A stretch of 64,000 nt of DNA from Thermoproteota archaeon (GTDB taxonomy: Archaea > Thermoproteota > Thermoprotei > Thermofilales > B9-G17), in the NCBI GenBank assembly GCA_029258885.1, contig JAPDJW010000009.1, positions 64,001 to 128,000 of the forward strand, given 5' to 3'. The position numbers and the translations under genes are program-made. Below the pieces are notes generated by a model. The model worked only from the letters and a program-made list of their open reading frames with translations. It had not been told where the DNA came from and searched no databases. Positions 1,122-33,181 of the stretch are shown piece after piece (position 1 is the stretch's first letter; each line of letters opens with the position of its first letter).

Positions 1122-2552
1122 TTACTTTTTCCTAATTAATATTGCAGCCAATATAACAGCCACGGATACTATTATAACGGCAGCGTTTTCCATTATTAAA
1201 GTCTTCAGAAGCTCTATCTTATTAACGAGGTAAGCCTCGCCGCCTATTACTGGGGGTAGCGGGAACACTATCTTTATGTCCTTAATAGAGCTATGGAATA
1301 CCTTAATATAGAGTATTTTCTCGTATTTATCGTAGTACCATACGTTGCTCGTAGCTGTTAGGTATTTATCCTTCGATAAGGTATACGGTATTAATACGCC
1401 GTCTACTTCAACCGTGTAGGGCCGGTCGTTTGACGTGATTTTGGTTTCGGATGCTGTGCCAGCTGGTGCATCAATTGATATTATGAAAACTCCCTTATCT
1501 GCATCGTAGGATGCCTGAACTATCGTGCCATTAGTTATTGTCGTATATGGGGAGTCAAACGGCCTAAATGCATAGTTTGCTATAGTTATCTCATCCTCCA
1601 CATCATCCGCTGAGGAGATGGAGGTCTCATACACCTTGCCGATGTCCGGACTAACTACCTCGATAACATACGATTCTCCAGGCACTAGTGGAAGGATTCC
1701 TACCCCCTTCATGTCGGTTGTCGCCGAGAACCCGTTAGCTAGTAGCTGATGCCCATATAATCTCTTCCCCAGCGCATCCTTAAGGGTTACATTATACTTC
1801 GCTATATCAATTCTAAGGTAGGTTGTTATATTATCGTGATCGCTCCATTCATTGGCTTGATCGTGTACATTATCGTTATAGGGTATGCTTGAGACAGCGC
1901 TACCATCCCCGCCAGTAATATATACTACCAAGTTGATTTCACTGGGTACACCCCCTAGAGCAGACCACGGCACCTTAACTTTAAATAGGGTTGAGCCACT
2001 GTGATCAGAGGCAACAGGGGTATAGCCTCCACCCACGCTTACAAGATCATTGTAGTACCATACGTACCAGTGGTGTACGTCGGGGTCTCTAACAATGGGC
2101 GGATAGCTCTCCCACATATACCTATTAAACTGGGCGGTTGTTATTGTAGAGCCGTCGTACCAGAAGTATGATATATAGTCTGGATAGTAGGGCGACGTAT
2201 GGTTGAAGAATCTGCCCCAGCAATCCCTCCACGTGGAGTCGTCGGGCTCATATACTGCTCCAAACCCTATATTTGGATCCTTATTAATGTCAAAGGCTAT
2301 TCCTAAAGCTAATCCCCAGCCGTCCGGGGCAAAGTCGACACCTATATATAGGAAGCTTGAATCCCAAGTCACATATAGGAGCGATAGATTAGCTGGCTTA
2401 CCTGGAGCATCTTGATCAACTTGAGCCACTTTCTCATCCGACGAGAAATCGTTTGAATTAGTACTCATATCTATCGTATGCGGCGGCTTCGCAAGAACCG
2501 AACCGAAAGCTACGATAGTTAATAGTAAAAATACTAGCAGTATTCTTTCCAT
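1122..2552 (-). CDS. Secreted, C-terminally anchored protein with DOMON/CBM9-like (glucodextranase-type) sugar-binding domain
   Basis: Signal peptide. Motifs LYVTWDSSFLYIGVDF, IAFDIN and FKVKVPWSALG resemble DOMON-like carbohydrate-binding domains. C-terminal TM followed by RKK. Confidence 0.55.
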   Translation of the reverse strand: MERILLVFLLLTIVAFGSVLAKPPHTIDMSTNSNDFSSDEKVAQVDQDAPGKPANLSLLYVTWDSSFLYIGVDFAPDGWGLALGIAFDINKDPNIGFGAVYEPDDSTWRDCWGRFFNHTSPYYPDYISYFWYDGSTITTAQFNRYMWESYPPIVRDPDVHHWYVWYYNDLVSVGGGYTPVASDHSGSTLFKVKVPWSALGGVPSEINLVVYITGGDGSAVSSIPYNDNVHDQANEWSDHDNITTYLRIDIAKYNVTLKDALGKRLYGHQLLANGFSATTDMKGVGILPLVPGESYVIEVVSPDIGKVYETSISSADDVEDEITIANYAFRPFDSPYTTITNGTIVQASYDADKGVFIISIDAPAGTASETKITSNDRPYTVEVDGVLIPYTLSKDKYLTATSNVWYYDKYEKILYIKVFHSSIKDIKIVFPLPPVIGGEAYLVNKIELLKTLIMENAAVIIVSVAVILAAILIRKK

Positions 2553-2662
2553 AAAATCACCTTTGCTATGATATACTTTCTAAAGACTTATAAATTTTAA
2601 TACTGTAGCGTAATTAAGTACTTCATAGCGCTCTCAAAGCTTAACAAGCTAGGTATCTATTT

Positions 2663-3637
2663 TCATCTATTCAGCATACCCGTTATTAGATATGCAAAAA
2701 TAAACACTGCTAAGAACAGTAGGAATGTTAGAACTAGAGTACTAGAACTTGCAGCCCCCGACTCCACGGGCAGGGCAATACATACCTCCGCATCAGATAC
2801 AACATACATTCTTCTCTCGTCGTATTTTACGCCGTCTTTCTCTATCCTAACTCTATATTCACCGGGATTAAGTTTAAGATTTACCCTACCCTCGGAATCC
2901 GTATGTAGGAGGTAGCTCTCCCCCTCCCCCTCAATCCTCACGGTTATGCCGCTAATAGGACTGCCCGATAGGCTTACGATCTTAATAGTAACGTTTAACC
3001 TCTTTAGGCCGTGGAGTGAGGTATATAGCTCCCTCACATAGTTCATAAACTTTATCCAGTTGAATGTTGATCCCGGATCTGTATGATGGCTTCTACCTCC
3101 CCCTACCCTGGGGTTGCTTGGATCGGGCACTTGAATATGCCCTATAATGCCGGAGGATTGGAGAGGACTTGGGGGAGCAACGCCCTCAACCCATACTAAT
3201 GCAACATTATAGTTTTCGTGAAGCCATACGGCAAGCTTAGCAAGGTTTTTATAGAGTGTGTCAGGCCAAATAGTGCTCCCAACATAGCCGGCAATCTCTA
3301 TGCCTACCGAATACCTATTATAGAGGGAGTTTCCAGCATGCCATGCAATATCCTTAATTCTAACCATCTGTGTGAGATGTGTACCAGCTTCATTTATAAC
3401 AAAGTGTGCACTAACTCTAGCTTTAGGATTCTTAAACCAATTAATAGTACCCCCGTAGCTTCCCTCAGCAACATGTATTATAAACCATCTAACATCTTCT
3501 CTGCCTCTATTACTGCTTAAATAGTTGCCTGGATCTGCTGGATTCCATATAGCTCCGGGGTAGTCCGGCTGAGAATATACTTTCACTGCCACAATCACCA
3601 TTAATAATATAATTAATAATGATAGTATTCCACGCAT
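2663..3637 (-). CDS. N-acetylmuramoyl-L-alanine amidase (Amidase_2/PGRP fold), secreted and membrane-anchored
   Basis: IIHVAEG (His), VSAHFVI, AWHAGN, VGIEIAG (Glu), IIGH (His), HTDPG (Asp). N-terminal signal peptide, Ig-like stalk, C-terminal TM. Confidence 0.9.
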   Translation of the reverse strand: MRGILSLLIILLMVIVAVKVYSQPDYPGAIWNPADPGNYLSSNRGREDVRWFIIHVAEGSYGGTINWFKNPKARVSAHFVINEAGTHLTQMVRIKDIAWHAGNSLYNRYSVGIEIAGYVGSTIWPDTLYKNLAKLAVWLHENYNVALVWVEGVAPPSPLQSSGIIGHIQVPDPSNPRVGGGRSHHTDPGSTFNWIKFMNYVRELYTSLHGLKRLNVTIKIVSLSGSPISGITVRIEGEGESYLLHTDSEGRVNLKLNPGEYRVRIEKDGVKYDERRMYVVSDAEVCIALPVESGAASSSTLVLTFLLFLAVFIFAYLITGMLNR

Positions 3638-3686
3638 AGAGGCCCGAGGAAAAATAGGTATTAACAGTTATTTAAATATGCTTCCG

Positions 3687-3740
3687 AGTCAGTGTTCGGA
3701 ACTTCGTTCATCGATCCCTCGAAACCTCCCTCATCATCCA
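3687..3740 (-). ncRNA. Candidate C/D-box guide sRNA
   Basis: Minus strand reads ATGATGA (C box, 3737-3731), about 12 nt, degenerate D'/C', AAGTTCCGAACA, then CTGA (D box, 3692-3689). About 50 nt, intergenic. The internal boxes are degenerate. Confidence 0.55.
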
Positions 3741-3770
3741 AGTATTTACTCCATAAACGGAGATATATTG

Positions 3771-5096
3771 TTACCTTCTAGTTTTTATCGCAAGCCCCAA
3801 TCCTAGAATAGCTAGTGTAATTGCCCAGACTAATGTTTCGTGGAATACTAACACTATAGTTAGGGCGCATAGAAGTACTCCTATGAGCGACGTTACGGGA
3901 ATATTTAGGGGGGCTAGCGGTATCTTAAATGGTCTCTCAGCATCCGGATATCTTCGCCTCAGAATAAGCACCGAGAAGTTCACAAAAATAAATGCTATTA
4001 GACAGCCCAAATTGGAGGACTTAGCGACAACATCTATAACCTTTATGGGATCCTCATAAAACCCTGATACTACCACCTCAAAGAGAGCCACGAACCCTGC
4101 CAATATAACTGAATAGTGCGGAGTTTTTCTTCGAGGATGCACTAAGGAGAGCTTGGGGTTTAGCATGCCATCGTACGACATTCCATACGCTATCCTAGAG
4201 GATGATACAAGGAAGCCCAGGATGGTGTTTGAGGTCGAAAATAGGGCAATAGACGCTAAAAGGTACCAGCCCATAGAGCCTAAAACCGATTTAACAGCTG
4301 AAGCAAGTGGTGCGCCAGCAATAGCTAGTTCCTTCCAATCCATCAGCTTAACTACAGATAAGGCAACCAATAGGTATAGTAGTCCGCATACAGTTAATGC
4401 AAGAATAATTGCCTTAGGCATTGTTCTTCTGGCATCAATTGTTTCTTCACTAGTCGTAGCCATAAGCTCAAAGCCGACATACGCAAAGAATATTAAGGCA
4501 GCTCCTTGAAGTATTCCAATCCAGCCTTTAGGAGGCATTGATACGTAGTCAGGGTTAACCCTGCCAAAAAGCGCTCCAAGAATTATTACAATTATTAGTC
4601 CGCTTACTTCCACTAGCGTGAATGCTATATTTAATTTACTGCTCTCCTCTATCCCAAGATAGTTTACATAGGTAAATATTAGTATGGCTACCGCCGATGC
4701 AAGTATTAACGTAATGTTTCTATTAAATATATTCAGCTGAAATATCTCTATAAAATACCTGGAGAATCCAACAGCTGCTGTCGCAGCACCACTAGCTGCC
4801 TCGAAAAATATCATCCATCCTACAAGAAAGGCCAGCATTTCCTGCTTATCAAATGCTCTTTTAACGTAAAAATAGCTACTTGAAGCCTTGGGATATAGAC
4901 CTGAAAGCTCTGCGTAGCTTAATCCAGTAAATAAAGCTATTAAACCAGCTACAACAACTGAGAGCCAAATTAATGGCCCGGCGTATGCTGCGGTTCGACC
5001 TATAACGACATATATCCCAGCTCCCAGTATTAATCCAATTCCAAACATTGTTGCCTGCCATAATCCTAGAGCACGCTTTAGCTCACTCATAGTCAC
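3771..5096 (-). CDS. APC-superfamily amino acid permease
   Basis: GIGLILGAGIY, FFAYVGFE, SRIAYGMSYDG..P, RPFKIP motifs; about 12 TM segments. Confidence 0.93.
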   Translation of the reverse strand: MTMSELKRALGLWQATMFGIGLILGAGIYVVIGRTAAYAGPLIWLSVVVAGLIALFTGLSYAELSGLYPKASSSYFYVKRAFDKQEMLAFLVGWMIFFEAASGAATAAVGFSRYFIEIFQLNIFNRNITLILASAVAILIFTYVNYLGIEESSKLNIAFTLVEVSGLIIVIILGALFGRVNPDYVSMPPKGWIGILQGAALIFFAYVGFELMATTSEETIDARRTMPKAIILALTVCGLLYLLVALSVVKLMDWKELAIAGAPLASAVKSVLGSMGWYLLASIALFSTSNTILGFLVSSSRIAYGMSYDGMLNPKLSLVHPRRKTPHYSVILAGFVALFEVVVSGFYEDPIKVIDVVAKSSNLGCLIAFIFVNFSVLILRRRYPDAERPFKIPLAPLNIPVTSLIGVLLCALTIVLVFHETLVWAITLAILGLGLAIKTRR

Positions 5097-5117
5097 ACCA
5101 GCATCTGCTATTAAGCC

Positions 5118-7127
5118 TTACCTTATTAATAACTTTTTAACAACTATTAACGCTGCAGCCACAGCTACAATGATAAGCACTAGTATGAGCTCGATCGGCA
5201 TCTCTTCCCTCTTTTCTTCCACGTGTACTACTAATATAGCGTATGTAGGCTTCCAGTACGGATTTCCCTCAAAGGCTACTTTAACGTAATAGTTTCCCGT
5301 TTCATAGGGCTTCCATAGATGTGTGAATTCGCCGCTACTATTTGTCGATATTTCACACATAAAGCTCCACTCTGAGGTATATTCGGGTCTAAAGTATATC
5401 TTCAAGTTTACGCTTATTCTCGGCTCCACGTAGCCCGATATTTTTACCCACTCTCCAAACACCGCTGAAATATTATATGAAGCAAGGTTTATCTTGAGGC
5501 TTGATTTAGGCTGAACCTCTATAGTTAAAGTATGCTCTGATGGAGCGTAGCTCTTCGATCCGTTGTAGCGAGCTTTAATGCAGTATTTTCCCTCGGTTTG
5601 AGGCCTCCATACGTATTTAAATTCCCCCTTATCATCCGCTAATACGCTGCTTATCTTAATCCAGCTTCCATCGGTCGAGTAGTAGAGGTCTATTTGAGCG
5701 CCAGCTATCGGTGGATTTATTTTACCGCTTATTTCAACGTAGCTACCTACTACGGGTGATGTATTATTTACCTTTAGCGTAAGGTAGGTTTTAGTCTGTA
5801 TTAAGGTTACTCTTATCGTTACTAGCTCATAATCTCCAAGGTAGGCTTCGCTCCCGTTCCACTGGAATAACACTAGATAAACCCCACCCTTAGTTGGGAG
5901 GAACTCGTAAATGAAACCTCCCGTATTATCAGTAGTAACCGTTTTATCCAGTATCCACGTTGCTCCGTTATCGAGGCTATACATGACGTATATTTTAGCT
6001 TTAGGTATCCCCGGCTCAAGCCTACCTTTAATTTCATACCTCTCATATCCCTTACAGGACTTAGGGTACGTTTCGATAACTATATCCGATAGATTTTTCC
6101 TATTTACCTCGTCGAGCGCGTTCCAGAAGCTAGAGTCCTCTATGCCAACATACCATACGGCGACGTATTTAAGCCCGAATTTTTTAATTAGTTTAAGCCT
6201 ATCAAGGTGGCTTGCAGGTCCCGAAAACCATACCTCATGGCGTTTTCTGCCTGCTGTATAGGAGTAGTGGTATTCCCCCTCCTTGTAATCGTATAGGACT
6301 TTAACTCTTAAAGCCTTAGCTCTAGATATTGCGGAGCCATACGTGACTGCCTTCCCTGTTCCGCCGACTGGCCAGTCTATACCGTAGGCGGGAATCCCTA
6401 TAATAAGCTTGTTGCTGGGCACCTTGGTTAATGCATACTCTATTATGTCCTGAATCCACCATATTGGAGCTACAGGACCTGGGGAACCCCCCGGATAGTG
6501 GTAATCGTACGCCATTATCACTACATAATCCACGACTTCAGCTATTTTTTCATAGTCGTATCCAGTAACCACGTCTCTGGTTTTAGGGAATACATCCACG
6601 CTAACTTCCTTATCTCCAATCTGCTTTAGCCTAAGCTTAAGCCTCTTTAGAAAGCTTACAAAGGCCTGTCTATCGCTACTATATACTCTTTCAAAGTCTA
6701 TATTTACCCCGTCGAAGCCGTAGTCTTCCACTACTTTAGCTATTTCCTCAACCACGTCCCTACTAGTCTGATTATTAAGTATAAGCTTAATCAGGGATGA
6801 GCTATGGCATATAACTGTGGGAACAACCTTAATTCCCTTATCCTGAGCGAAGGAGACGAAGTTCTTAAATGTGTCTCCAATAGACTTTATCGGGACAACG
6901 CTTCCATCGTCATCCACCTTAAACCAGAACGGTGATACGTGCGAGAAATACTTATACTTAGAATACAGCTTACTTGTATCAAAGTTCCACCAGGCAAACC
7001 ATCCAAATAGCTTTATCTCATCTGAAGCATTTCCCTGAGCATCTACGGGTAAAGTAGGCGTTAAGGCTACCGATATCATTAAGAGCCCTATACATAACAC
7101 GTTAATTCTAGCATTCAAAGCCATCAC
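5118..7127 (-). CDS. GH18 glycoside hydrolase, spore cortex-lytic (CFLE/YdhD/SleL)-like, with Ig-like repeats and C-terminal TM anchor
   Basis: FDGVNIDFE catalytic motif; VIMAYDYHYPGGSPGPVAP and KLIIGIPAYGIDW typical of CFLE-type GH18; signal peptide; repeated Ig-like modules; TM plus KK. Confidence 0.88.
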   Translation of the reverse strand: MMALNARINVLCIGLLMISVALTPTLPVDAQGNASDEIKLFGWFAWWNFDTSKLYSKYKYFSHVSPFWFKVDDDGSVVPIKSIGDTFKNFVSFAQDKGIKVVPTVICHSSSLIKLILNNQTSRDVVEEIAKVVEDYGFDGVNIDFERVYSSDRQAFVSFLKRLKLRLKQIGDKEVSVDVFPKTRDVVTGYDYEKIAEVVDYVVIMAYDYHYPGGSPGPVAPIWWIQDIIEYALTKVPSNKLIIGIPAYGIDWPVGGTGKAVTYGSAISRAKALRVKVLYDYKEGEYHYSYTAGRKRHEVWFSGPASHLDRLKLIKKFGLKYVAVWYVGIEDSSFWNALDEVNRKNLSDIVIETYPKSCKGYERYEIKGRLEPGIPKAKIYVMYSLDNGATWILDKTVTTDNTGGFIYEFLPTKGGVYLVLFQWNGSEAYLGDYELVTIRVTLIQTKTYLTLKVNNTSPVVGSYVEISGKINPPIAGAQIDLYYSTDGSWIKISSVLADDKGEFKYVWRPQTEGKYCIKARYNGSKSYAPSEHTLTIEVQPKSSLKINLASYNISAVFGEWVKISGYVEPRISVNLKIYFRPEYTSEWSFMCEISTNSSGEFTHLWKPYETGNYYVKVAFEGNPYWKPTYAILVVHVEEKREEMPIELILVLIIVAVAAALIVVKKLLIR

Positions 7128-7307
7128 CTATACAATTTGCTAATACATGATTACCCTTAGGGGATTAAAATAGATCTACTATTAAAGATCAATTCAGTAT
7201 ACACCTATATTCATATGACGAAGATATTTACGGATCTTGCCAGGGCAGGTGCCGACTATAACTCTATGTTGGAGATCTTAGGCTAAGGCAACAACTTATA
7301 TTTTTAA

Positions 7308-8192
7308 TTGCGAACTAAGTCTATGGGATTTAAAGTGAGCCTTGATAATTTAGAGCAAGCTATTGAGAACTTTAAAGTAGATATAGTTAATAGGGATTTT
7401 CTAAGCGATATTATCGATGCTATAGGCAGGGACGGCAAACTAGTTAGGGTAAATACAACAGAAGACGTGTATTTTATCGGAGACCTGCACGGGGATTACG
7501 AGTCGCTTAAAAGAATTATCAGCTTATCGTACGAGAGGAGTGGAATATACGTCTTCCTTGGGGACTACGTGGATAGAGGGCCTTCTCAGCTTGAAACGTT
7601 CCTAGGAGTACTTATATTTAAGCTGTTCAATAAGGATAGAACTATAGTTTTAAGAGGAAACCATGAAGACCCATTCATGAACGAGTACTACGGTTTCATA
7701 TACCATTTAATGTCGAGGCTTAAGGGGGAATGGAGAATCTTCTACCAGAACTTCATAATACCCCTATATGTCAGCCTCCCCGTTTCAGCAGTTATAAAAC
7801 TCGGCGAAGGTCTGAGAATTTTTGCAGTACATGGAGGCATACCTATAGAAGCCCCGAGCCTAGATGAATTAGAGAAAATTCCAGAACAGGAAACGATAAC
7901 TGATTCAATTCTGCTCCAACTGTTATGGAATGATCCACGTGAAGGGCTTGAGGAATATGAGCCTAGCTTTAGGGGTCCAGGAATATACTACTTTGGCAGG
8001 AGGATTTTAGAGGATTTCTTATCTAAAAACGATCTAAGTCTAGTTATTAGAGCGCATGAGCCCGTTGAAGACGGTTACGAAGCTTTATTTAACGGAAAAC
8101 TATACACGGTATTTACTTGTAGATTCTATGGAATAAAGCCAGCAATACTCAGAATAACAAAAGAAGGCATCATCGAGCCTATCTTTATCTAA
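7308..8192 (+). CDS. Ser/Thr protein phosphatase, PPP family
   Basis: GDLHG, GDYVDRG, RGNHE, VHGG, LLWNDP and RAHE motifs. Confidence 0.93.
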   Translation: MRTKSMGFKVSLDNLEQAIENFKVDIVNRDFLSDIIDAIGRDGKLVRVNTTEDVYFIGDLHGDYESLKRIISLSYERSGIYVFLGDYVDRGPSQLETFLGVLIFKLFNKDRTIVLRGNHEDPFMNEYYGFIYHLMSRLKGEWRIFYQNFIIPLYVSLPVSAVIKLGEGLRIFAVHGGIPIEAPSLDELEKIPEQETITDSILLQLLWNDPREGLEEYEPSFRGPGIYYFGRRILEDFLSKNDLSLVIRAHEPVEDGYEALFNGKLYTVFTCRFYGIKPAILRITKEGIIEPIFI

Positions 8193-8253
8193 ATGATAAG
8201 ATTTATTGATTCCTAGCAAGAATAATTTTATATATAGATTAGTTGTGGTGTTT

Positions 8254-8499
8254 ATGGGCAGGGTTATAAAAGTTTCAGATGAGGTATATGAACGTCTAAA
8301 GGTGTTGAAAAAGCCAGGAGAATCGTTTTCAGATGTTATTCTACGTTTGTTAAATTATAATAAACCTAGACTTATTGGCTTAATTGGGAGGAGAACTATA
8401 ACAAGTAAAGAATGGGATAGGATTAGGATGGAACTTAAAATTCGGGAGGAGCTGGATGAGATAAGGAAAAGCTATTTGCTTAGGTTGATGGAGAGATGA
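8254..8499 (+). CDS. VapB-like antitoxin (archaeal DUF217/VAPB_antitox-type)
   Basis: MGRVIKVSDEVYERLKVLKKPGESFSDVILRLL. I moved the start to ATG 8254, which follows a GTGGTG SD-like site. Confidence 0.8.
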   Translation: MGRVIKVSDEVYERLKVLKKPGESFSDVILRLLNYNKPRLIGLIGRRTITSKEWDRIRMELKIREELDEIRKSYLLRLMER

Positions 8500-8567
8500 A
8501 TTATCTGGTTATCTGCAGATATCTTCAGTAGGGGAGGTTCCATTTCCTCTATCTATACAGCTGGACG

Positions 8568-9581
8568 GTGAATCTATTGATCAGCGATATTATATGGATT
8601 TTCACTGCGAAATGTGGATTGAACTGTCCCCACTGCTATGTTAAGCCTAGGTTTTCGAAGCTGAGGGAGCTTTCGAGTAGTGAGAAGATAAGGCTTGTCA
8701 GGGAGGCGGCCGAAATGAACGTAGAGTGGATAGGCTTAAGTGGTGGTGAACCATTAATCCACCCCGACTTTAAAGCTATAGTTAGGGAGGCATCGGAGCA
8801 CAATATGGAAGTCAGCGTAGTAACCAGCGGTATAATGTATATGAAGGAGTCGCTAGACGTCATAAGAAGGCATAATGTATATGTAACTGTAAGCCTTGAT
8901 GGAGCTACTATTAAGAGCCATGAACTAGTAAGAGGAAAGGATGCCTGGAAAAAGACGGTAGGCTTTATTGAGAAGCTTAGATTGATGTCTATAGAATTTT
9001 CAACGGTAATAGCCGTAAACCGCTTCAATTACCTTGAGGCCGGGGAATACGTTGAGTTATCAATGGAGCTAGGCTCGAGATGTGCATGCCTTATACCGAC
9101 TATGAAGACTGGCTCAGCTGTTTCAACTGGAATGTACGTTACGGCACCTAAGTATCTGGAGGCGATAAAGAAGGCTGAGGAAAAAGCTGATGAATTAGGT
9201 TTTCCAGTATCCCTATGGTGTTCGCCCTTTGCCGGACTATATGTTCGCTCGCCATACGTGAAATACGGCAACTGTAGATTCTGGGATAACGTTGACATAG
9301 ATCCTGCAGGGAGAATACTGCTATGTGACACTATAGACATAGTCCTGGCGGAATACAGGGGCAACCTAGCTGAAGCCGTTGAGGAAAGTCTAAGAAATCC
9401 GATAAATAAGCTGGTGGAGGAGGTAGAGGACGACATATGCCTAAAATGTAGAAACTACAGGTTCTGTAGAGGCGGCTGCTTCGCTAGAGCATACATGGAA
9501 TATGGCGACCTAAGGAGACCTGACCCACTATGTCCAGTAGTATTTTATTCTAAAAGAAATTACTATATTAATAAGAAATAG
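8568..9581 (+). CDS. Radical SAM protein with SPASM domain
   Basis: CxxxCxxC (CGLNCPHC), SGGEPL, C-terminal CxxCxxxxxCRGGCxARAY...DPLC. Confidence 0.92.
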   Translation: MNLLISDIIWIFTAKCGLNCPHCYVKPRFSKLRELSSSEKIRLVREAAEMNVEWIGLSGGEPLIHPDFKAIVREASEHNMEVSVVTSGIMYMKESLDVIRRHNVYVTVSLDGATIKSHELVRGKDAWKKTVGFIEKLRLMSIEFSTVIAVNRFNYLEAGEYVELSMELGSRCACLIPTMKTGSAVSTGMYVTAPKYLEAIKKAEEKADELGFPVSLWCSPFAGLYVRSPYVKYGNCRFWDNVDIDPAGRILLCDTIDIVLAEYRGNLAEAVEESLRNPINKLVEEVEDDICLKCRNYRFCRGGCFARAYMEYGDLRRPDPLCPVVFYSKRNYYINKK

Positions 9582-9668
9582 CCGTTGCTATCCTATGCTA
9601 TTTAGATATTTGAATTTAAGGACTGTGTATAGATTCTTTGTTTGCTCTCGGGCGAAGGGATTGTGCTG

Positions 9669-10667
9669 TTAGTCTATCTCTTCCTCGACAGCTATTTTAG
9701 TTAGGGATGTGCTTATAATCCTGCCATATTCCTCGACTAGAACCATTATTGCGGCTCTAGGCGGTATTATCCCTTTCTCGGTAATTATTGCATCAATATA
9801 CTCCGGTGGAGTAACGTCGAATGCCGGATTTCTTACAATAATATCACTATTTTTCTTAATGTATTCCTCAGGGACAACCTCTAGCGGGCTCCTCTCCTCA
9901 ATTACTACAAGTTCACCTAGAACGGTTGCTGGACTAAACTTATAAGTTTCGCTGGCGACAAAAAACCTAACCCTGGCCTCCTGTGCGGCAAGGGCTATCT
10001 GTGACGTACCTATTTTATTAACAACAGCTCCGTTGGCTGCAATGGTATCGGCACCTACAATAACCTTATCAATCTTCTTTATGAAGAACCTAACGGCCGA
10101 ATCCGTTATTAGAGTGACATCTATACCTAAATCCCTCAAAGTCCTGTAAGTTATAAGTCCCTGAAACTTAGGCCTAGTCTCGGTTGCGAAAACCCTAATC
10201 TCCTTCCCTGATAGGAAGGCGTGCCTTATAACGGATATTGCCGTCGAGCTATTACAGTGAGTTAAAATAGTATCACCACTTGAAATAAGCCTTGAACCTA
10301 TTCTACCAATCTCCTCAACAGCCTTCTTCGATATCTCAATAAAGCTCTTAGCCGAGTTGATAGCTATACTCCTAAGCTCACTAAAACCCATACCCTCCTC
10401 AAACCCCTGAGACACCCTTATTAGCACGTATCCAACAGCGTTCGGAAGAGAGACTGCCGTAGGCCTAGTAGACTTAAGGTAATCTCCAACCAAATTCAGG
10501 TAATCAACAAAGCTTTCAGGATCTCTAGATAAATCGTACTTCTCAGCAGCTATCTTCAAAGCCTTAGCCGCCGCTCTAGCTATCCTACCGGCCCCCCTAA
10601 TTTTCATAGATTTAATGCCTTCAGCTATCTTAACAACCTCGGGAGGAAAATACTGTGGCGCTACCAT
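9669..10667 (-). CDS. e2b2: Ribose-1,5-bisphosphate isomerase (eIF-2B alpha/beta/delta family)
   Basis: MKIRGAGRIA, RPTAVSL, THCNS (catalytic Cys), ETRP, GADTI (catalytic Asp), NKIGT, NPAFDVTP. Confidence 0.88.
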   Translation of the reverse strand: MVAPQYFPPEVVKIAEGIKSMKIRGAGRIARAAAKALKIAAEKYDLSRDPESFVDYLNLVGDYLKSTRPTAVSLPNAVGYVLIRVSQGFEEGMGFSELRSIAINSAKSFIEISKKAVEEIGRIGSRLISSGDTILTHCNSSTAISVIRHAFLSGKEIRVFATETRPKFQGLITYRTLRDLGIDVTLITDSAVRFFIKKIDKVIVGADTIAANGAVVNKIGTSQIALAAQEARVRFFVASETYKFSPATVLGELVVIEERSPLEVVPEEYIKKNSDIIVRNPAFDVTPPEYIDAIITEKGIIPPRAAIMVLVEEYGRIISTSLTKIAVEEEID

Positions 10668-11656
10668 AGCTTCACCTCAATCTCCTTCAAAAGATCATCG
10701 AGCTCCGGGAACTTCGGCGGCCAGCCATATATGTCTCTAAGTAGGAATATTACCGCCTCAGGCGCTACAAGTCCTTTCTCGGTAATTATTGCGTCAATGT
10801 ACTCGGGAGGAGTAACATCAAATATTGGTAGAATGGACTTCACATCGCCGAGCTCCTTGATGGCCTCACCAATAAACTTTTCGGACGGCCTCTTAATAGT
10901 CAACTCGACGAGCTCTCCGAAGATGGTTTCCGGGCTGAACTTATGGGTTGAGGATGCTATAAACACTCTAACCCTAGCCTCGTGTGCAGCCAGCGCTATC
11001 ATCGACGTACCAACCTTATTTATAACGGCACCGTTCGCGGCTATCGCTTCTGCGCCAGTAATAACCTTATCCACATCCTTCATAAAATACCGGACTGCGG
11101 AATCAACAAAAATAGTGACAGGAATTCCTAGCTCCCTCAGCTTTTTAGCCGTATAGAACCCCTCGGATCCAGGCCTAGATTCAACCACGTAGACCTTAAA
11201 CTTAACTCCTCTATCCCATGCCTCCTTAAAGAGCCTATAAACGGTACCGCTATATGAAATAGTTAAAATGGTCTCTCCGGGATTAATCCTCCTAGAGCCT
11301 ATGATAGCAACAGCTTCAACAGCCTCCCTTAACTCCTGTTTAAGCGCCTCAGCCTCCCTCTTCACGGAATCCTTAATCTTTTCAAAATCCCTAGTCTCAT
11401 CCAGAGCTATATTCAGCCTATGTAGAAGCCTCCTAAGAGAGTTGGCCATCATAACCGACGTAGGCCTAGCGGAATAGAGCTTCTCTACGGCAGTGGAACA
11501 GTATTTAAACGCTGTATTAATATCGCTTGAGTATTCGAAGGCCTTAACGAATACTTCTATTCCAGTAGTTACTACATCGGTTGAACTATATATGTTAAAT
11601 AGAGAGATATCTTCAACCGCCTTATCTAAAACATCGTAATAGTTAGAACTAGACAT
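10661..11656 (-). CDS. eIF-2B/R15Pi-family paralog lacking the canonical catalytic Cys and Asp
   Basis: Same family motifs (RPTSV, ESRP, NKVGT, FDVTPPEYIDAIITEKG), but TISYS replaces THCNS and GAE replaces GAD. Confidence 0.85.
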   Translation of the reverse strand: MSSSNYYDVLDKAVEDISLFNIYSSTDVVTTGIEVFVKAFEYSSDINTAFKYCSTAVEKLYSARPTSVMMANSLRRLLHRLNIALDETRDFEKIKDSVKREAEALKQELREAVEAVAIIGSRRINPGETILTISYSGTVYRLFKEAWDRGVKFKVYVVESRPGSEGFYTAKKLRELGIPVTIFVDSAVRYFMKDVDKVITGAEAIAANGAVINKVGTSMIALAAHEARVRVFIASSTHKFSPETIFGELVELTIKRPSEKFIGEAIKELGDVKSILPIFDVTPPEYIDAIITEKGLVAPEAVIFLLRDIYGWPPKFPELDDLLKEIEVKLW

Positions 11657-11892
11657 ATCATCACGGTTTTTGAATAATATTCATCACATAATTATTTTAT
11701 AAACGTTACTATGCCTCTCTGCACATTACTACGATCTTACGCATCCCTACAGCCGGAAGCTACTGGTTTAAATTCTGTAATTTAAATAGCAATACCATCA
11801 AAATTAATTATTATCATGGTGCAAACAATAAAGATTTATTAAATGATTAGGCTAAAAGAGTAGTGGAAACTCCCGTAATCTAGGGTGGTTAC

Positions 11893-13239
11893 TTGAGCTA
11901 CTTTAAAGATAAGGCCGATGAGATAGCATCCTTCCTCTCAGAGCTTATAAGGTTCAATACAACAAATCCTCCCGGAAACGAGCTTGAGGCAGCAAAGTTT
12001 GTGGCAGAAAAACTCGGAGAATACGGCATCAACTGTGAGATACTCACGAGCAACTCAAATAGAGGTAACGTTATAGCCAGGATATCTGGATCCAGCAGTG
12101 GACCACGTCTACTATTGCTATCACATTTGGATGTTGTACCAGCAAAACCTAGCGACTGGAGGCATCACCCATTCAGCGGTGAAATAAAAGACGGATACGT
12201 GTGGGGTAGAGGCGCGATAGATGATAAAGGCCACGTAGCAATGGAAGTATTCACATTGATAGCGCTCATCGAGAATAGGGTGGAGTTCAACGGCGAAATA
12301 ATATTTGCAACCACAGCCGACGAGGAGATGGGAGGAAAATACGGCGCTAAATGGCTTGTTGAAAACCATCCAGAGAAAGTTAAGGCGGATTACGTTATAA
12401 ACGAGGGAGGAGGCTTCGGACTACCAGCTGGAGACAAGATAGTCTTTGCCATTCAAACAGCCGAAAAAGGAGTGTACTGGTTTAAACTTAAGGTTAAAGG
12501 TAGACCTGGACATGCATCAATGCCACTAAGCGGTGAAAACGCTATAGTAAAGATATCTAAAGCCATTAAAGAGCTGGAGGAACATAAAATGCCTATAACA
12601 CCAAACATACACGTTAAACTATTTATTGAGACCCTAGCCTCAGCTACAGGAAAAGGACTTTTATCGAAAATACTCCTATCAAGAGCACTCGGAGAGCATG
12701 CTTTAAAGAGAATCTATAGGAGCGATAAATCCCTCGCAGCACTACTAGACGCTATGCTTAGAAACACAATCACACCCACCGTAATTAAGGGAGGATACAA
12801 GGAAAACATTATACCCGATGAAGTTGAATGCATATTCGACTGCAGGCTCCTTCCAGGCTTCAACGAGAAGCACGTCCTAAACCACCTCAAAGAAGTACTC
12901 AAGGGACTAGAATACGAGGTAGAATTCCTACACAAGGATCCATCAACCCAATCCCCAATAAACACCCAACTCTTCAACATAATAGATAAGGTACTGAGGA
13001 AAAACGTTCCAAACGCCATAGTCACCCCATACATGAGCACCGGAGGAACAGACTCAAGATTCTTCAGGAGAAAGTTCAACAGCATAGCCTACGGCTTCGA
13101 GCCGATAGTAATTGAAGGACCGTTAAAGGAGTTTATGTCAATGATCCATGGAATAAACGAGAGAATATCCATCAAAAACCTAGTATTTGGAACAAAAGTA
13201 ACCTTCGAGACGATAGTAGAGCTAATGAAGGCCAGATAA
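11893..13239 (+). CDS. M20/M25/M40 family metallopeptidase (ArgE/DapE/ACY1-like)
   Basis: SHLDVVP, WGRGAIDDKG, ADEEMGG, NEGG, GHASMP, GGTDSR, IHGINER. Confidence 0.93.
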   Translation: MSYFKDKADEIASFLSELIRFNTTNPPGNELEAAKFVAEKLGEYGINCEILTSNSNRGNVIARISGSSSGPRLLLLSHLDVVPAKPSDWRHHPFSGEIKDGYVWGRGAIDDKGHVAMEVFTLIALIENRVEFNGEIIFATTADEEMGGKYGAKWLVENHPEKVKADYVINEGGGFGLPAGDKIVFAIQTAEKGVYWFKLKVKGRPGHASMPLSGENAIVKISKAIKELEEHKMPITPNIHVKLFIETLASATGKGLLSKILLSRALGEHALKRIYRSDKSLAALLDAMLRNTITPTVIKGGYKENIIPDEVECIFDCRLLPGFNEKHVLNHLKEVLKGLEYEVEFLHKDPSTQSPINTQLFNIIDKVLRKNVPNAIVTPYMSTGGTDSRFFRRKFNSIAYGFEPIVIEGPLKEFMSMIHGINERISIKNLVFGTKVTFETIVELMKAR

Positions 13240-26605: not shown

Positions 26606-29600
26606 TTGAAAAAGTCTATTTTTATAATAGCCTTACTTATACTTACAATTGCCTTGAGGTTCGGTTTAGCCGATCCATCAGCTTCAGTCAGCATAGATGA
26701 CATCGTCGATTATGTTGAGAAGATAAATGGCTTTAAGCCTAGATTCACGGGATACGAGGGCTGTAGGGAGGCGGCTAGATATATCTTTAATGAGTTTTCA
26801 AAATACCTAGACAACGTTACCTGGGAGACCTACCCTATATTAATACCGTACGATGCTGGTTCCACATTGATTGTTAAAGTCGGCGGTGAGGAGTATTCCT
26901 TTAAGGTATATCCATTTCTACCCAATGATGTACAGACATGCTACGGAGAATATGAGGGAAAATTAGTCTACGTAGGGGATGCAAGCTATACTAGCCTGAA
27001 CGGTAAGGAACTTAATGGAAGCATAGCTGTAGTTGAATTAGACTGCTATATTAGCTGGGTTAGGCTGATAGACTTCGGAGTAAAGGCTGTAGTATTCATA
27101 CCTAAATATGATGTGAATAGGCTTCAAATGGAGGGTAAATACCTAGATATACCCGTAAAGTTTCCAAGAGCGTTATTATCGCTTAATGATAGAGAAAGGA
27201 TAATACGCTTACTTAGGGAGAATATGGAACTGGAAGCCAAGCTTAAAATAGGTATGAAGTGGGAGGTTAAGAGTTGTGACGTAATATACGGCTACATAAA
27301 TGGAGCAAGTAAACCCGATGAAGTGGTGGTGCTACTTTCCCATTTCGATTCCTACTCGTGGGCTCCATCTCTTCCCACGGGAGCTTCTGATGCAATAGGT
27401 ATATCGATACTAATGGAGCTTGCAAGAGTATTCTCTGTAAATAGGCCTGAAAGAAGCATACTATTCGTAGCTGTATCGGGACATTACCAGGGACTTTATG
27501 GCACGAGGATGTTTATTGAGAGACATATTTTAAATGAAAGCGATAGGCTCAATCTTCTAGCTTCAAATAAGAAGATCTTCGTAATCGATCTAAAAGTATT
27601 TGACGATGATTCCAGGGTATCCTTCCTATATGTCTCGTACTTCTATGATGCATCAACAGGAGGAATATCTGTTAGTGCTAGACAGAGGTACGTTGAAGTA
27701 GCTAAAGGTATAGACAAAGTACTAGACTATCTGAGCTCAAACATGCCTGAAGGCTTAGATGAGGAGTACATAAGTCACGAATATGAAATGCTGAGTATAA
27801 GTCAGGGAACAAACGATTGGCAGAGGTTATTTCCACGCCCAATACACATCGATGCTGAAGCATTCTTCAGGGTGGGATTAGCTAGCGTATGCTTTCATAC
27901 CGCATACAGCTTCAGAAAATATCTTGGAACGGAGCTTGATACACCGGAGAGGATAAACTGGGAAAACGTCCTGAAACAAGCGGTATTTATTGAAAGCGTG
28001 GTAAATACTATAGTAAACGATGTTAAATATGGTTTTTTTGAAAATTTAGTTTCAGGATTAGCTACAACTGGACCTAAGAGATCGGGCAGCTATGGTGAGT
28101 CATTTGGGGATTTTGTAGGCAAAATTGTCACATGGGATCCGGATAAGGCAAACTGGGTTCCATTGTCGGAAGCTGGGCTAAAACCAGCTATTGTCTCAAT
28201 TAGATTAGGCGGAGCTACCTTCTCCGGATCCCAGTGGAACGTAAGATTCTACCTATTAACTGATAAAGACGGAGTCTTCACGTTAAATGGTTCGCTCATA
28301 GGCTGGGGAGCCAGCTATGAGGTTAGAGCATACATAATGGATGAAAACTATAACATTATCTATGTTTCAGACTTCGGTAGGCATGGAGGTGAAGTCTGGT
28401 CCAACACTTTTCTCCTAAACGCTCCAATAGTGGGAAGCAAGGATAATCCAAGACTTTTTGTAGTATTCAAGGCATCCGGCATAGTACTGCCTAAAATACT
28501 GGATCCTCTAGTGGTATCCGAACCTCTCTCACAGTCAAACAACCTGTATCCGGATGGAGCATACGAGAACAGCTTTAGTATTGAAGTTCTAGAAGAGGAT
28601 ACGGGCGTACCCCCGGACGCTTACTCCTGGTATATGGATCCGAAGGGTATTGGAGTAGTATTTCTTCAACCCAACTCAAAGGCTCTCGTGGTAATGAGAA
28701 CTAAGGGAAGAGAATACCCGATAGGTTTCATAATAGTTAACTCAGGAGATGCTGGAACAGAAGCTATCTATACGAGATTTCTTGAGAGGATATCCTTAAG
28801 CGTTATGAAGCTAGCCTTAGAGAGGAGAAATAGGCTGAAGAGCTTTGGTGTAACAAACTATATGCTTGAAAAATTCATATCCATGGCTAGTGAAAAGGAG
28901 GCTAAACTCCAAGCCTTAATTGAAGATAAACGCTATGATGAATACTTTGTTGAGTCGGTCGATTTACTGGGGTTAGCATACAATTCATATGCCTTCTCCA
29001 GAGGCCTTTACATGGACGTGATACTCTCAACAGTATTGCTCTTCATACTAATACTTGTCTTCTCAATACTGCTCGAAAAGACTTTAACTGGAGATAAGAG
29101 TGCTAAAATAAGAGCGTTTTCGCTCATATCGATATTTACCGTAACTCTAGTAACCTTATCAATACTTCATCCGGGCTTCACTTTAGCAGCAAATATTATA
29201 ATGGTTGAAATAGGCTTCGTAATGCTACTATTCATAGGCTTAATACTATTCATACTATTCCTGGAGTTCACAGTCTTTCTCCAAACATATAGGAGGGAGA
29301 GGCTCGGCGTCCACTTCATGGAATCCAGAGGAATAGAGGTCGGAGTTCTAGCGATGTCCACGGGAACGGAGTACATGAAGAGGAGGAAAATTAGAACCCT
29401 ATTAACGCTAATATCGATAACAGTAATAGCGTTCGCTCTAGTCACCTTCACATCCGGACAGACGATGATCGTAATCACGCCTAAAGTTTTCGAGCCTGAA
29501 CTTAAGAAGACGCTATACAACGGCATACTCTTGGAGAGAATAGCTACCGTTAACAATCCTCTATCGATAGAGCTATACGAATACCTAAAAATCAAGCTTA

Positions 29601-31054
29601 AGAACATAGGATTAGCCACAATAAAAATATGGTCACTTCAGCCTAGGGGGGCGGCAGGCCAGCAGTTCATAATTCATGCAGTGGATCCGGCTACACTCAG
29701 GAAGATGGATATAAGGGGAATATATGGGCTTATGCCTGAAGAATACGAGTTAGTAGCTAAAAACATAACTCTCATAGAAGGCAAATGGTTTGACGAAACA
29801 GATGTATTTGTCTGTATTATACCCGAAAGCCTACACGAGCTGTTTGAACTGAACGTCGGAGACGAAATACTGATACAGGGGCTTAAGCTTAGGATTATAG
29901 GAATATTTAGCGATACATTGCTGGCGAACTTAAGGGAGATAGATAACCGCGAATTAACGCCAATAATAGGTAGCCAGGGAGGCCTTCCGATACATTCGCG
30001 TCCATCATACACGATTATAGTCCCGGTTAAGCTTGTGATCTATCAGCCATGGCTCACGCAGGGAGTAGGCGTAGACTTCCAGGTAGCGCAGATAACTGCT
30101 AGAGTTGAGGCAGATAAGGAGAGGCTAATGGATATAGCCGAGGAGATAGCGTTAACTCATCCAGGCTTCGATATATTCATAGGCTACGGCGACAAGATAT
30201 ACCACTTGAGTAAAAGAGCGGCGCTCCAGGTGGCTGGACTAGAGTATATGATCATACCCATCATAATTTCGGTATTAAATATTGTAACAATGGTTCTGGC
30301 AGCTGTCTACGAGAGAATGCGTGAAATATTTGTCTACTCTGCCTTAGGCCTAGCCCCGGTACATGTCGGACTAATGTTTCTAGCAGAGTTTTCAGTATAT
30401 GCCATATTTGGATCATTAGTCGGATACACTATAGCGGTAGCTTTCCTCAGAGCGTTTTCCGGCATGGTTGGAATATATCCGAACTATATATCAGCCTACG
30501 TAATGATGACGATAGGAATATCGGTACTGTCGGTACTCGTTGCAACGCTGTATCCAATGTTTAAGATAACTAGGATAGCATTACCTTCGTTAAAGAGGAG
30601 GTGGGAACTGCCCACAAAGCCCGCGGGTGATATCTGGAATATACCATTGCCATTTTTCGCATCCTCAAGAGAGGAGGCTATAGGGGTTCTATGGTATTTA
30701 GCTGAATTTGCTGCAATGCATAGAAGTGAGGAGTTCGGAAAATTTGTAGCAACAAATATCTCCGGAGCAATATCTGAAGATGAGATGGAGCTCAAATTTA
30801 GGGCAAGAATAGCTCCGTGGAGAGCAGGCATAGAGCAGGATGTAGCAATTAAGGCAATGTATTTCAAGGAGAGGAATAACTGGACGTTTAATCTCGTACT
30901 AAAGAGGATAAGTGGAGACTATAGGACATGGAGATCGGCCAACTACGTATTCGTGGATACTGTTAGGAAGCAGTTCCTGCTCTGGAGAAGCCAACCGCCT
31001 GAGAAAAAGAAGGAGTACTTCGAGAAGGGGCTTAAACGTTTTAGCGGAGGATGA
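26606..31054 (+). CDS. Large membrane protein: PA + M28 peptidase-like domain fused to MacB/FtsX-like permease
   Basis: PA-like YEGKLVYVGDA; SHFDS...GASDAIG...SGHYQGL; multiple TMs; FtsX motif VYERMREIFVYSALGLAPVHVGLMFLAEF. Confidence 0.85.
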   Translation: MKKSIFIIALLILTIALRFGLADPSASVSIDDIVDYVEKINGFKPRFTGYEGCREAARYIFNEFSKYLDNVTWETYPILIPYDAGSTLIVKVGGEEYSFKVYPFLPNDVQTCYGEYEGKLVYVGDASYTSLNGKELNGSIAVVELDCYISWVRLIDFGVKAVVFIPKYDVNRLQMEGKYLDIPVKFPRALLSLNDRERIIRLLRENMELEAKLKIGMKWEVKSCDVIYGYINGASKPDEVVVLLSHFDSYSWAPSLPTGASDAIGISILMELARVFSVNRPERSILFVAVSGHYQGLYGTRMFIERHILNESDRLNLLASNKKIFVIDLKVFDDDSRVSFLYVSYFYDASTGGISVSARQRYVEVAKGIDKVLDYLSSNMPEGLDEEYISHEYEMLSISQGTNDWQRLFPRPIHIDAEAFFRVGLASVCFHTAYSFRKYLGTELDTPERINWENVLKQAVFIESVVNTIVNDVKYGFFENLVSGLATTGPKRSGSYGESFGDFVGKIVTWDPDKANWVPLSEAGLKPAIVSIRLGGATFSGSQWNVRFYLLTDKDGVFTLNGSLIGWGASYEVRAYIMDENYNIIYVSDFGRHGGEVWSNTFLLNAPIVGSKDNPRLFVVFKASGIVLPKILDPLVVSEPLSQSNNLYPDGAYENSFSIEVLEEDTGVPPDAYSWYMDPKGIGVVFLQPNSKALVVMRTKGREYPIGFIIVNSGDAGTEAIYTRFLERISLSVMKLALERRNRLKSFGVTNYMLEKFISMASEKEAKLQALIEDKRYDEYFVESVDLLGLAYNSYAFSRGLYMDVILSTVLLFILILVFSILLEKTLTGDKSAKIRAFSLISIFTVTLVTLSILHPGFTLAANIIMVEIGFVMLLFIGLILFILFLEFTVFLQTYRRERLGVHFMESRGIEVGVLAMSTGTEYMKRRKIRTLLTLISITVIAFALVTFTSGQTMIVITPKVFEPELKKTLYNGILLERIATVNNPLSIELYEYLKIKLKNIGLATIKIWSLQPRGAAGQQFIIHAVDPATLRKMDIRGIYGLMPEEYELVAKNITLIEGKWFDETDVFVCIIPESLHELFELNVGDEILIQGLKLRIIGIFSDTLLANLREIDNRELTPIIGSQGGLPIHSRPSYTIIVPVKLVIYQPWLTQGVGVDFQVAQITARVEADKERLMDIAEEIALTHPGFDIFIGYGDKIYHLSKRAALQVAGLEYMIIPIIISVLNIVTMVLAAVYERMREIFVYSALGLAPVHVGLMFLAEFSVYAIFGSLVGYTIAVAFLRAFSGMVGIYPNYISAYVMMTIGISVLSVLVATLYPMFKITRIALPSLKRRWELPTKPAGDIWNIPLPFFASSREEAIGVLWYLAEFAAMHRSEEFGKFVATNISGAISEDEMELKFRARIAPWRAGIEQDVAIKAMYFKERNNWTFNLVLKRISGDYRTWRSANYVFVDTVRKQFLLWRSQPPEKKKEYFEKGLKRFSGG

Positions 31055-31112
31055 ATATTATGGGTTTTAAATATATTTATAAATTCAATGGGATATTAAA
31101 GAAGTTTTCACA

Positions 31113-31128
31113 AAAACTTATATACTCT
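31113..31128 (+). promoter_or_regulatory. BRE/TATA-like promoter, second copy of the 16-mer
   Basis: AAAACTTATATACTCT, 51 bp upstream of ATG 31180. Confidence 0.65.
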
Positions 31129-31179
31129 TAGAGGATATTATTATCTATCCATAACTAATATTAAGGAGGTTCTTTACGT

Positions 31180-33171: not shown

Positions 33172-33181
33172 CCTTTTCTTT

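Follow-up and report, generated by a model that had tools for sequence, protein, structure and literature searches.

Why should an archaeon of the Thermoproteota carry, almost next to each other, genes for two enzymes that act on the walls of bacteria? The question is raised by positions 1122–7127 of the window, the name used here for the whole 64,000-nucleotide stretch of contig JAPDJW010000009.1 (assembly GCA_029258885.1) that was analysed. Four genes lie there on the minus strand, for a GH18 glycosidase, an APC amino-acid permease, an Amidase_2 protein and a fourth protein resembling a sugar-binding module, and a plus-strand phosphoesterase gene converges on them. This arrangement had been described in an earlier, sequence-only reading of the stretch, whose positions and domain calls all hold. 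That reading went on to propose a surface-displayed kit of four genes to lyse or scavenge bacterial walls or spores. Scavenging of walls is supported by genes for the catabolism of N-acetylmuramic acid (MurNAc) in the same genome, by the co-occurrence of such hydrolases with MurQ and by the archaeal nature of the host, but the kit of four and its fixed linkage had to be given up, and nothing singles spores out as the target. The explanation favoured here, with modest confidence, has a functional unit of three genes, namely a GH18-permease operon followed by the Amidase_2 gene. On balance this triad and the MurNAc enzymes encoded on contig 1 of the genome would together make up a pathway of bacterial-wall scavenging, with the triad in its outer stage.

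The GH18 gene (5118–7127, minus strand, 669 aa) is the first of the unit and was characterised with Pfam and by a sequence search of the PDB. The product matches Glyco_hydro_18 with 106.5 bits against a gathering cut-off of 29.6 (109.7 bits in the genome search) and is laid out as a signal peptide, a barrel at about residues 40–340, approximately three Ig-like repeats and a C-terminal transmembrane segment (641–669). Its assignment to the spore-cortex-lytic type was borne out. Among solved structures its closest relatives are YdhD (E 1.9e-44) and YaaH/SleL (1.5e-38 and 1.4e-33), whereas ordinary chitinases match at 1e-12 or weaker and the model for EndoH, an endo-beta-N-acetylglucosaminidase (ENGase), gives only 18.5 bits. 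With these proteins of Bacillus spores (PDB 4s3j, 4s3k and 3cz8) it thus shares the GH18 subfamily (E 1e-33 to 1e-44) and the catalytic motifs, D139-G-V-N-I-D144-F-E146, M205-A-Y207-D208 and W325 all being present; Asn142 replaces the second Asp of the classical DxxDxDxE motif, as it does in an archaeal clade of GH18 enzymes. Unlike SleL and YdhD, to which it is about 30–36% identical, the archaeal enzyme has no LysM domain and possesses instead the signal peptide, Ig-like stalk and C-terminal anchor, and its host is no spore former. According to a table of PMC10653849 and the references given there, SleL itself is an N-acetylglucosaminidase whose substrates are small fragments of cortex.

In a database of 5.8 billion proteins the nearest GH18 relatives beyond the species itself were only 30–36% identical. 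Those of named source are mostly YaaH-like proteins of Bacillota, and many of the relatives bear wall-associated LysM, PG_binding_1, SLH or Cu-amine-oxidase-N1 domains. A quick maximum-likelihood tree placed the window enzyme as a long branch in an unresolved polytomy beside a clade with good support, made up of 11 short archaeal GH18s with N-terminal anchors; a single archaeal origin is conceivable.

The Amidase_2 gene (2663–3637, minus strand, 324 aa) encodes a signal peptide, an AmpD-like zinc amidase domain (about 25–205), a CarboxypepD_reg stalk (216–277) and a C-terminal transmembrane segment (294–324). The Amidase_2 match of 80.5 bits stands against a Pfam gathering cut-off of 26, with the CarboxypepD_reg domain recognised in addition. 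The zinc ligands H55, H167 and D187 and the catalytic E114 are invariant or nearly so among 14 aligned relatives, these positions being assigned by motif (IIH, GIE, GH and TDPG) and not by superposition on the metal site. The AlphaFold2 (AF2) model has a pLDDT of 94, and its top 50 fold matches in the PDB are all MurNAc-L-Ala amidases or peptidoglycan recognition proteins (PGRPs), the best being AmpD with TM-scores of 0.65–0.70. Family match, fold and intact catalytic residues are therefore as the call of an anchored Amidase_2 would have them. The score against the NCBIfam AmpD equivalog NF008758 (53.6 bits) is below its cut-off of 143, which makes the enzyme an Amidase_2 but not an AmpD orthologue. 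It is like AmpD, AmiD and AmpDh2-3 in fold, His-His-Asp zinc triad and catalytic Glu, but it is predicted to be extracellular on a C-terminal transmembrane tether, where they are cytoplasmic or lipoproteins. The closest relative of the amidase (59% identity) is encoded between a preceding GHL10 (PF02638) gene and a following sulfatase gene on an archaeal-looking contig (JGI 3300021590, L029 1414–3370). GHL10 is the family of the Cwp19 lytic transglycosylase of Clostridioides difficile; an enzyme of that kind would yield anhydro-MurNAc, a substrate of AnmK.

Hydropathy analysis of the GH18, the amidase and the fourth protein showed in each a single hydrophobic segment at either end and none between them. 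This fits a signal peptide with a C-terminal membrane anchor, and all three are predicted to be exported and held on the surface, as previously proposed. The permease gene (3771–5096, minus strand, 441 aa) gave AA_permease_2 and AA_permease matches of 183 and 154.8 bits, both above cut-off, and about 12 hydrophobic spans, in agreement with its identification as an APC amino-acid permease. The permease start follows the GH18 stop after 21 nucleotides (5097–5117, minus strand), a spacing that recurs in three independent assemblies. So short a spacer leaves no room for a promoter of its own, and the two genes are probably co-transcribed and form one operon. The amidase and fourth genes are each preceded by an intergenic gap of 110–133 nucleotides with a TATA-like box. 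Sister assemblies of one population retain the order Metallophos, GH18-permease-amidase, Metallophos, and at least four assemblies, derived from different samples, agree in the order of the triad. The window gave no matches in Rfam or tRNA scans, and an expression look-up listed no RNA dataset containing the locus or the GH18 gene alone.

That the contig is archaeal was confirmed. The genome (2.10 Mb, 99.9% complete) carries an archaeal small-subunit ribosomal RNA gene on contig 3, and database entries named 'Thermofilum sp. ex4484_79' and 'Thermoprotei archaeon' include proteins that share at least 90% identity with the GH18 and with the amidase. The possibility that the DNA came from a bacterial contaminant or formed a foreign island was considered and rejected; the tetranucleotide correlation with the 16S-bearing contig is 0.93 for the contig and 0.84 for the locus, within the range of random 6-kb segments. 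About ten studies of hydrothermal vents and marine sediments yielded metagenomes that contain the locus. A profile search of the genome found no Mur-ligase domain (Mur_ligase_M), as expected of a host that makes no peptidoglycan.

The means of using MurNAc were found on contig 1. MurQ scores 336.6 bits against an equivalog cut-off of 302, AnmK 327 bits, NamZ (NamZ_N) 255 bits and NagZ (GH3) 278 bits, and LysA, directly beside NagZ, 456 bits against a cut-off of 298. None of the five has an export signal, and NagZ and NamZ are predicted to be cytoplasmic in the archaeon. At G000:C1:216339–222217 the genes for LysA, NagZ, a BadF-type kinase-like open reading frame (ORF), MurQ and NamZ stand side by side, again without export signals. 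The presence of LysA among MurNAc genes suggests salvage of meso-diaminopimelate.

A second pair of hydrolases lies on the same contig (G000:C1:182000–198000, local positions 7203–11791), where the gene for an N-anchored GH18 of 351 aa is head to head with that for an Amidase_2 of 480 aa. The latter is of the PGRP/T7 (Cys) type with a stalk and a C-terminal transmembrane segment, and is not a recent paralogue of the window amidase. The pair is two genes from AnmK, a xylose-isomerase-like TIM protein being followed by AnmK itself (E 1.7e-97). In a genome with only three GH18 and two Amidase_2 genes the two types are therefore paired twice, via different gene lineages. The third GH18, also SleL-like (G000:C1:412000–424000, local positions 5461–9184), is co-oriented with genes for a transporter of the EamA family and an M28 peptidase of 556 aa, another pairing of hydrolase and transporter. 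The window cluster is a satellite of the contig-1 locus, and it is in the latter that the main novelty lies.

The distribution of these genes was examined in 120 genomes of the class and in 401 genomes drawn evenly from the phylum. In the class MurQ scored above cut-off in 17 genomes. Amidase_2 was present in six, all of them with MurQ, and a SleL-like GH18 in nine, eight of them with MurQ; the ninth genome is 68% complete. In the phylum sample, where MurQ was called at E <= 1e-60, it was found in 38 genomes (37 above the family cut-off). It was present in 17 of the 22 genomes with a SleL-like GH18 against 21 of the 379 without, and in 11 of the 15 with Amidase_2 against 27 of the 386 without, the background rate in genomes lacking the hydrolase being about 6–7%. 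All eight genomes with both hydrolases, which span four families, have MurQ. Fisher tests gave p = 1e-9 for Amidase_2 and 2e-15 for the GH18, values that overstate the association, since genomes that are related do not count as independent; all the same, the pattern is repeated in several families. Judged from these genes and their distribution, the archaeon probably feeds on bacterial walls. In the library of papers searched, none tied MurQ or AnmK to archaeal genomes, the only match concerning ciliates.

The enzyme steps of such feeding can be outlined from the biochemistry of the families, with SleL as a glucosaminidase and with the scheme of PMC8054146, in which amidase, glucosaminidase and NamZ digest in sequence in Bacillus subtilis. 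The GH18 and the amidase would be exported and held on the archaeal surface by the Ig-like stalk and the C-terminal membrane anchor, and would act on bacterial peptidoglycan touching the cell, whether from dead or living bacteria. First the amidase would cut the MurNAc-L-Ala amide bond and remove the stem peptides. The SleL-type GH18, using substrate-assisted catalysis that requires an N-acetyl sugar in the -1 subsite, would then cut the peptide-poor glycan after N-acetylglucosamine (GlcNAc) to give short oligosaccharides of the MurNAc-GlcNAc type. Carriers would import these fragments, NamZ and NagZ would split them, AnmK or the BadF-type kinase would produce MurNAc-6-phosphate and MurQ would convert this to GlcNAc-6-phosphate. 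Other peptidases would free amino acids from the stem peptides for import by the co-transcribed APC permease, and LysA would convert meso-diaminopimelate to lysine. The fuller proposal, that the archaeon lives partly off walls and that the operon couples murein hydrolysis to uptake, including that of meso-diaminopimelate for LysA, is put forward tentatively.

Uptake of wall-derived amino acids by the permease is inferred and is the weakest link of this mechanism, since APC carriers take free amino acids and no LD-carboxypeptidase or racemase was found. The best subfamily matches of the permease are below cut-off (TIGR00909, 283 against 556.8 bits; BcaP, 247.6 against 690 bits), so that it falls into no subfamily of known substrate. 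Its best solved relative is the broad-specificity transporter GkApcT (5oqt, E 5.8e-50), and its own genome holds no paralogue at E 1e-5 in tblastn.

Several results weigh against the triad as a scavenging unit, and a number of them concern this permease. The amidase would release tri- to pentapeptides and not the free amino acids that APC permeases carry, and a domain search of the genome found no S66 LD-carboxypeptidase, Asp/Glu racemase or Ala racemase. The permease family is present in 88 of the 120 class genomes, mostly without MurQ, and the closest orthologues (64–66% identity) are not linked to wall genes; by these comparisons the permease is a lineage-typical amino-acid transporter. Conserved linkage of the genes in relatives, which had been put forward as a check, was not found. 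The triad occurs in only one species-level population, orthologous amidases and GH18s elsewhere standing in other contexts; window-type amidases, in four of the 120 class genomes, are never beside a GH18 or permease, and in three relatives the GH18 gene adjoins unrelated genes. By the criterion of the earlier reading itself this lack of linkage counts against a fixed kit, and conservation gives the triad no support. No word of at least 10 nucleotides was common to the regions upstream of the cluster and those of nine contig-1 locus genes and the third GH18. As to the enzymes, Pfam recognised no LysM, PG_binding or SH3 domain in the GH18 or the amidase. Some members of the GH18 subfamily are fused to chitin-synthase-like GT2/deacetylase or HAD domains, which makes other GlcNAc polymers possible substrates. 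The amidase differs from AmpD in having a histidine, His185 of H-T-D-P-G, two residues before the last zinc ligand, at the position of AmpD Lys162 and T7 lysozyme Lys128; of the 13 other sequences in the alignment 12 also have His there, and P0038 has Lys (K-T-D-P-G). As for the kit of four, the fourth gene is no reliable part of it.

This fourth gene (1122–2552, minus strand, 476 aa), classified by structure comparison, is a strain-variable neighbour and not part of the core. Its product had been called an anchored DOMON-like sugar-binding protein, which is a fair description of the fold, but the best lead for its ligand is alpha-glucan and not murein. No strong Pfam match was obtained, a PDB sequence search gave no matches, and the leads from a language-model atlas (Glucodextran_C and CBM9) were sub-threshold. 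The layout is a signal peptide, a CBM74/CBM9-like module (about 22–250), a beta-sandwich stalk and a C-terminal transmembrane segment (448–476). In the AF2 model (pLDDT 86) the N-domain matches the CBM74 of Ruminococcus bromii Sas6 (PDB 7uwu/7uwv) with Z 17.8 and a root-mean-square deviation of 2.8 Å over 204 residues at 22–23% identity; the next fold matches are CBM9, the glucodextranase C-domain and the ethylbenzene dehydrogenase gamma subunit, at Z 8.5–10. Related modules occur in large archaeal surface proteins and, fused, at the C-terminus of GH57 alpha-glucan enzymes. Unlike the module of Sas6, the one in the fourth protein stands alone on an anchored stalk with no catalytic partner in the same protein. 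The C-terminal half is 34% identical to a surface protein encoded on contig 1 (C1:184966–185589), and the whole protein has no orthologue among 40 relatives. When the locus was compared by blastn with the sister strains L061 and L062, both were found to lack 1,220 bp within the gene (1182–2401 of the window, minus strand), a clean internal deletion that leaves a stub of 44 codons (the 44-aa remnant P0178). The gene is thus dispensable in nature. The fourth protein is a dispensable surface protein, predicted to bind glycan, and judging from the model alpha-glucan is more likely than murein to be its ligand.

Four other explanations of the locus have to be set beside scavenging. The enzymes might be a weapon and not a means of feeding, the tethered hydrolases mainly killing or weakening adjoining live bacteria by lysis at contact range, in competition, with nutrition secondary and the permease unrelated. 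According to PMC12352652, killing of bacteria by archaeal peptidoglycan hydrolases has been demonstrated, and their distribution is patchy and resembles horizontal gene transfer; in the class examined here the hydrolases are sporadic as well, and display on the surface reaches only touching cells. However, the tight association with MurQ, the complete cytoplasmic MurNAc route and LysA favour nutrition, SleL-type enzymes work on small fragments and not on intact walls, and the outer membranes of Gram-negative bacteria would shield living targets. Killing and feeding are not exclusive roles; a weapon in place of nutrition is considered unlikely.

A shade less probable is that the GH18 acts on chitin, chito-oligosaccharides or another GlcNAc polymer, such as exopolysaccharide or glycoprotein glycans, and that its adjacency to the amidase is incidental. 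GH18 is primarily a family of chitinases and ENGases, the window enzyme gives weak matches to EndoH/EndoS and GH85 models, the fusions to chitin-synthase-like and deacetylase domains point the same way, and NagZ would serve the use of chitin too. Against these points stand the scores of true chitinases, more than 30 orders of magnitude weaker than those of YdhD and SleL, the double occurrence of the GH18 and Amidase_2 pair in the genome and the fact that this GH18 type tracks MurQ, which is specific to MurNAc, in the 17 of 22 genomes given above.

It is quite unlikely that no functional unit exists and that a resident housekeeping permease is merely flanked by two independently acquired hydrolase genes. 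The presence of the permease family in relatives without hydrolases would be expected in that case, as would the lack of a common gene order around its orthologues, the promoter-like boxes of the amidase and fourth genes and the ongoing loss of the latter. Against this, the 21-nucleotide spacer implies one transcript, the gene order is stable in all assemblies seen, and for two enzymes of the same pathway to flank the permease by chance is improbable in a genome with so few GH18 and Amidase_2 genes. Last, remodelling of the archaeon's own envelope (S-layer glycans) or attack on the pseudomurein of co-resident methanogens is considered very improbable, for although all three proteins are predicted to be anchored on the surface of the producer and pseudomurein-bearing archaea inhabit vents, the genome holds no Mur-ligase-type wall synthesis that could be found, the fold matches of the amidase are exclusively murein amidases, we know of no substrate of Amidase_2 except the MurNAc-L-Ala bond, which pseudomurein lacks, and the association with MurQ speaks against either role.

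Wall scavenging, the explanation preferred here, may be compared with the MurNAc recycling of B. subtilis, whose operon is given by Mueller et al. (2021, PMC8054146) as murQ-murR-murP-amiE-nagZ-namZ. In the account given there an extracellular amidase and glycosidases strip peptidoglycan and NamZ, NagZ and MurQ process the sugars, as is proposed for the archaeon, whose MurQ, NagZ and NamZ homologues all exceed their cut-offs. The archaeon, however, has no murein of its own and would be foraging rather than recycling. NagZ and NamZ, secreted in B. subtilis according to the same source, are predicted to be cytoplasmic, an Amidase_2 takes the place of an AmiE-type amidase, there is an additional SleL-like GH18 of the endo type, the genes are divided over a main locus and a satellite, and an APC permease is found at the cluster in place of the MurP phosphotransferase system. 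Archaeal peptidoglycan hydrolases have been described recently by Strock et al. (2025, PMC12352652), who leave open whether they serve killing or feeding. The window enzymes are like those in being archaeal, of bacterial origin, predicted to be directed at murein and patchy in occurrence. They fall outside the definition used in that survey, a catalytic domain with at least one cell-wall-binding domain, having no such domain, and differ further from the enzymes described there in being tethered and not released and in belonging to a genome with full MurNAc catabolism, a setting that bears on the choice between food and weapon.

Several other genes were noted around the triad. The convergent phosphoesterase gene (plus strand) enters the window with its 3' part at 1–1096, the full ORF of 498 aa starting 400 nucleotides before the window. 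Its product has Metallophos matches and an N-terminal hydrophobic segment (16–41), and is predicted to be secreted or anchored. The gene keeps the same position in the sister strains and is only a conserved neighbour of the triad. Divergent from the GH18 gene, 7308–8192 (plus strand) encodes a Ser/Thr phosphatase of the PPP family that is cytoplasmic and carries GDxHG, GDxVDRG and GNHE motifs. It shares a Pfam family with the secreted phosphoesterase but is a different kind of protein, and it is unrelated to the cluster. In sister strains a PIN toxin gene adjoins the VapB antitoxin gene (L061 6204–6955 against 8206–8567 of the window). The window strain and L063 have VapB only, with no PIN ORF before the radical-SAM gene, and VapB is thus apparently an orphan antitoxin in the window strain. 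A peptidase of the M20/M28 family (448 aa, 11893–13239, plus strand) is encoded 5 kb upstream of the triad in a position conserved in the sister strains, and could take part in peptide breakdown. Further on, 26606–35080 (plus strand) encodes three membrane proteins (1482, 663 and 632 aa), the third copy of a membrane module of which two others are found inside the contig-1 MurNAc/peptidoglycan locus (identity 23–28%, E 5e-15 to 5e-139). This module lies at a distance of 19.5 kb from the triad and is a candidate for the import of wall fragments.

Archaeal peptidoglycan hydrolases and the bacterial MurQ/NamZ/NagZ pathway are already known, as PMC12352652 and PMC8054146 set out. What the cluster adds is a wall glycosidase linked to an amino-acid permease in a probable operon, and a naturally occurring deletion that marks a dispensable neighbour. 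A survey restricted to proteins with wall-binding domains would overlook the window enzymes, which have none, so that the capacity of archaea for the turnover of bacterial necromass in hot sediments may be underestimated. The combination of hydrolases with a complete MurNAc-specific route, tracking MurQ in several archaeal families, makes the feeding hypothesis directly testable. If it is true, archaeal peptidoglycan hydrolases would serve nutrition and not only warfare, and the trait would be a recurrent one in the Thermoproteota, where about 9% of the sampled genomes have MurQ.

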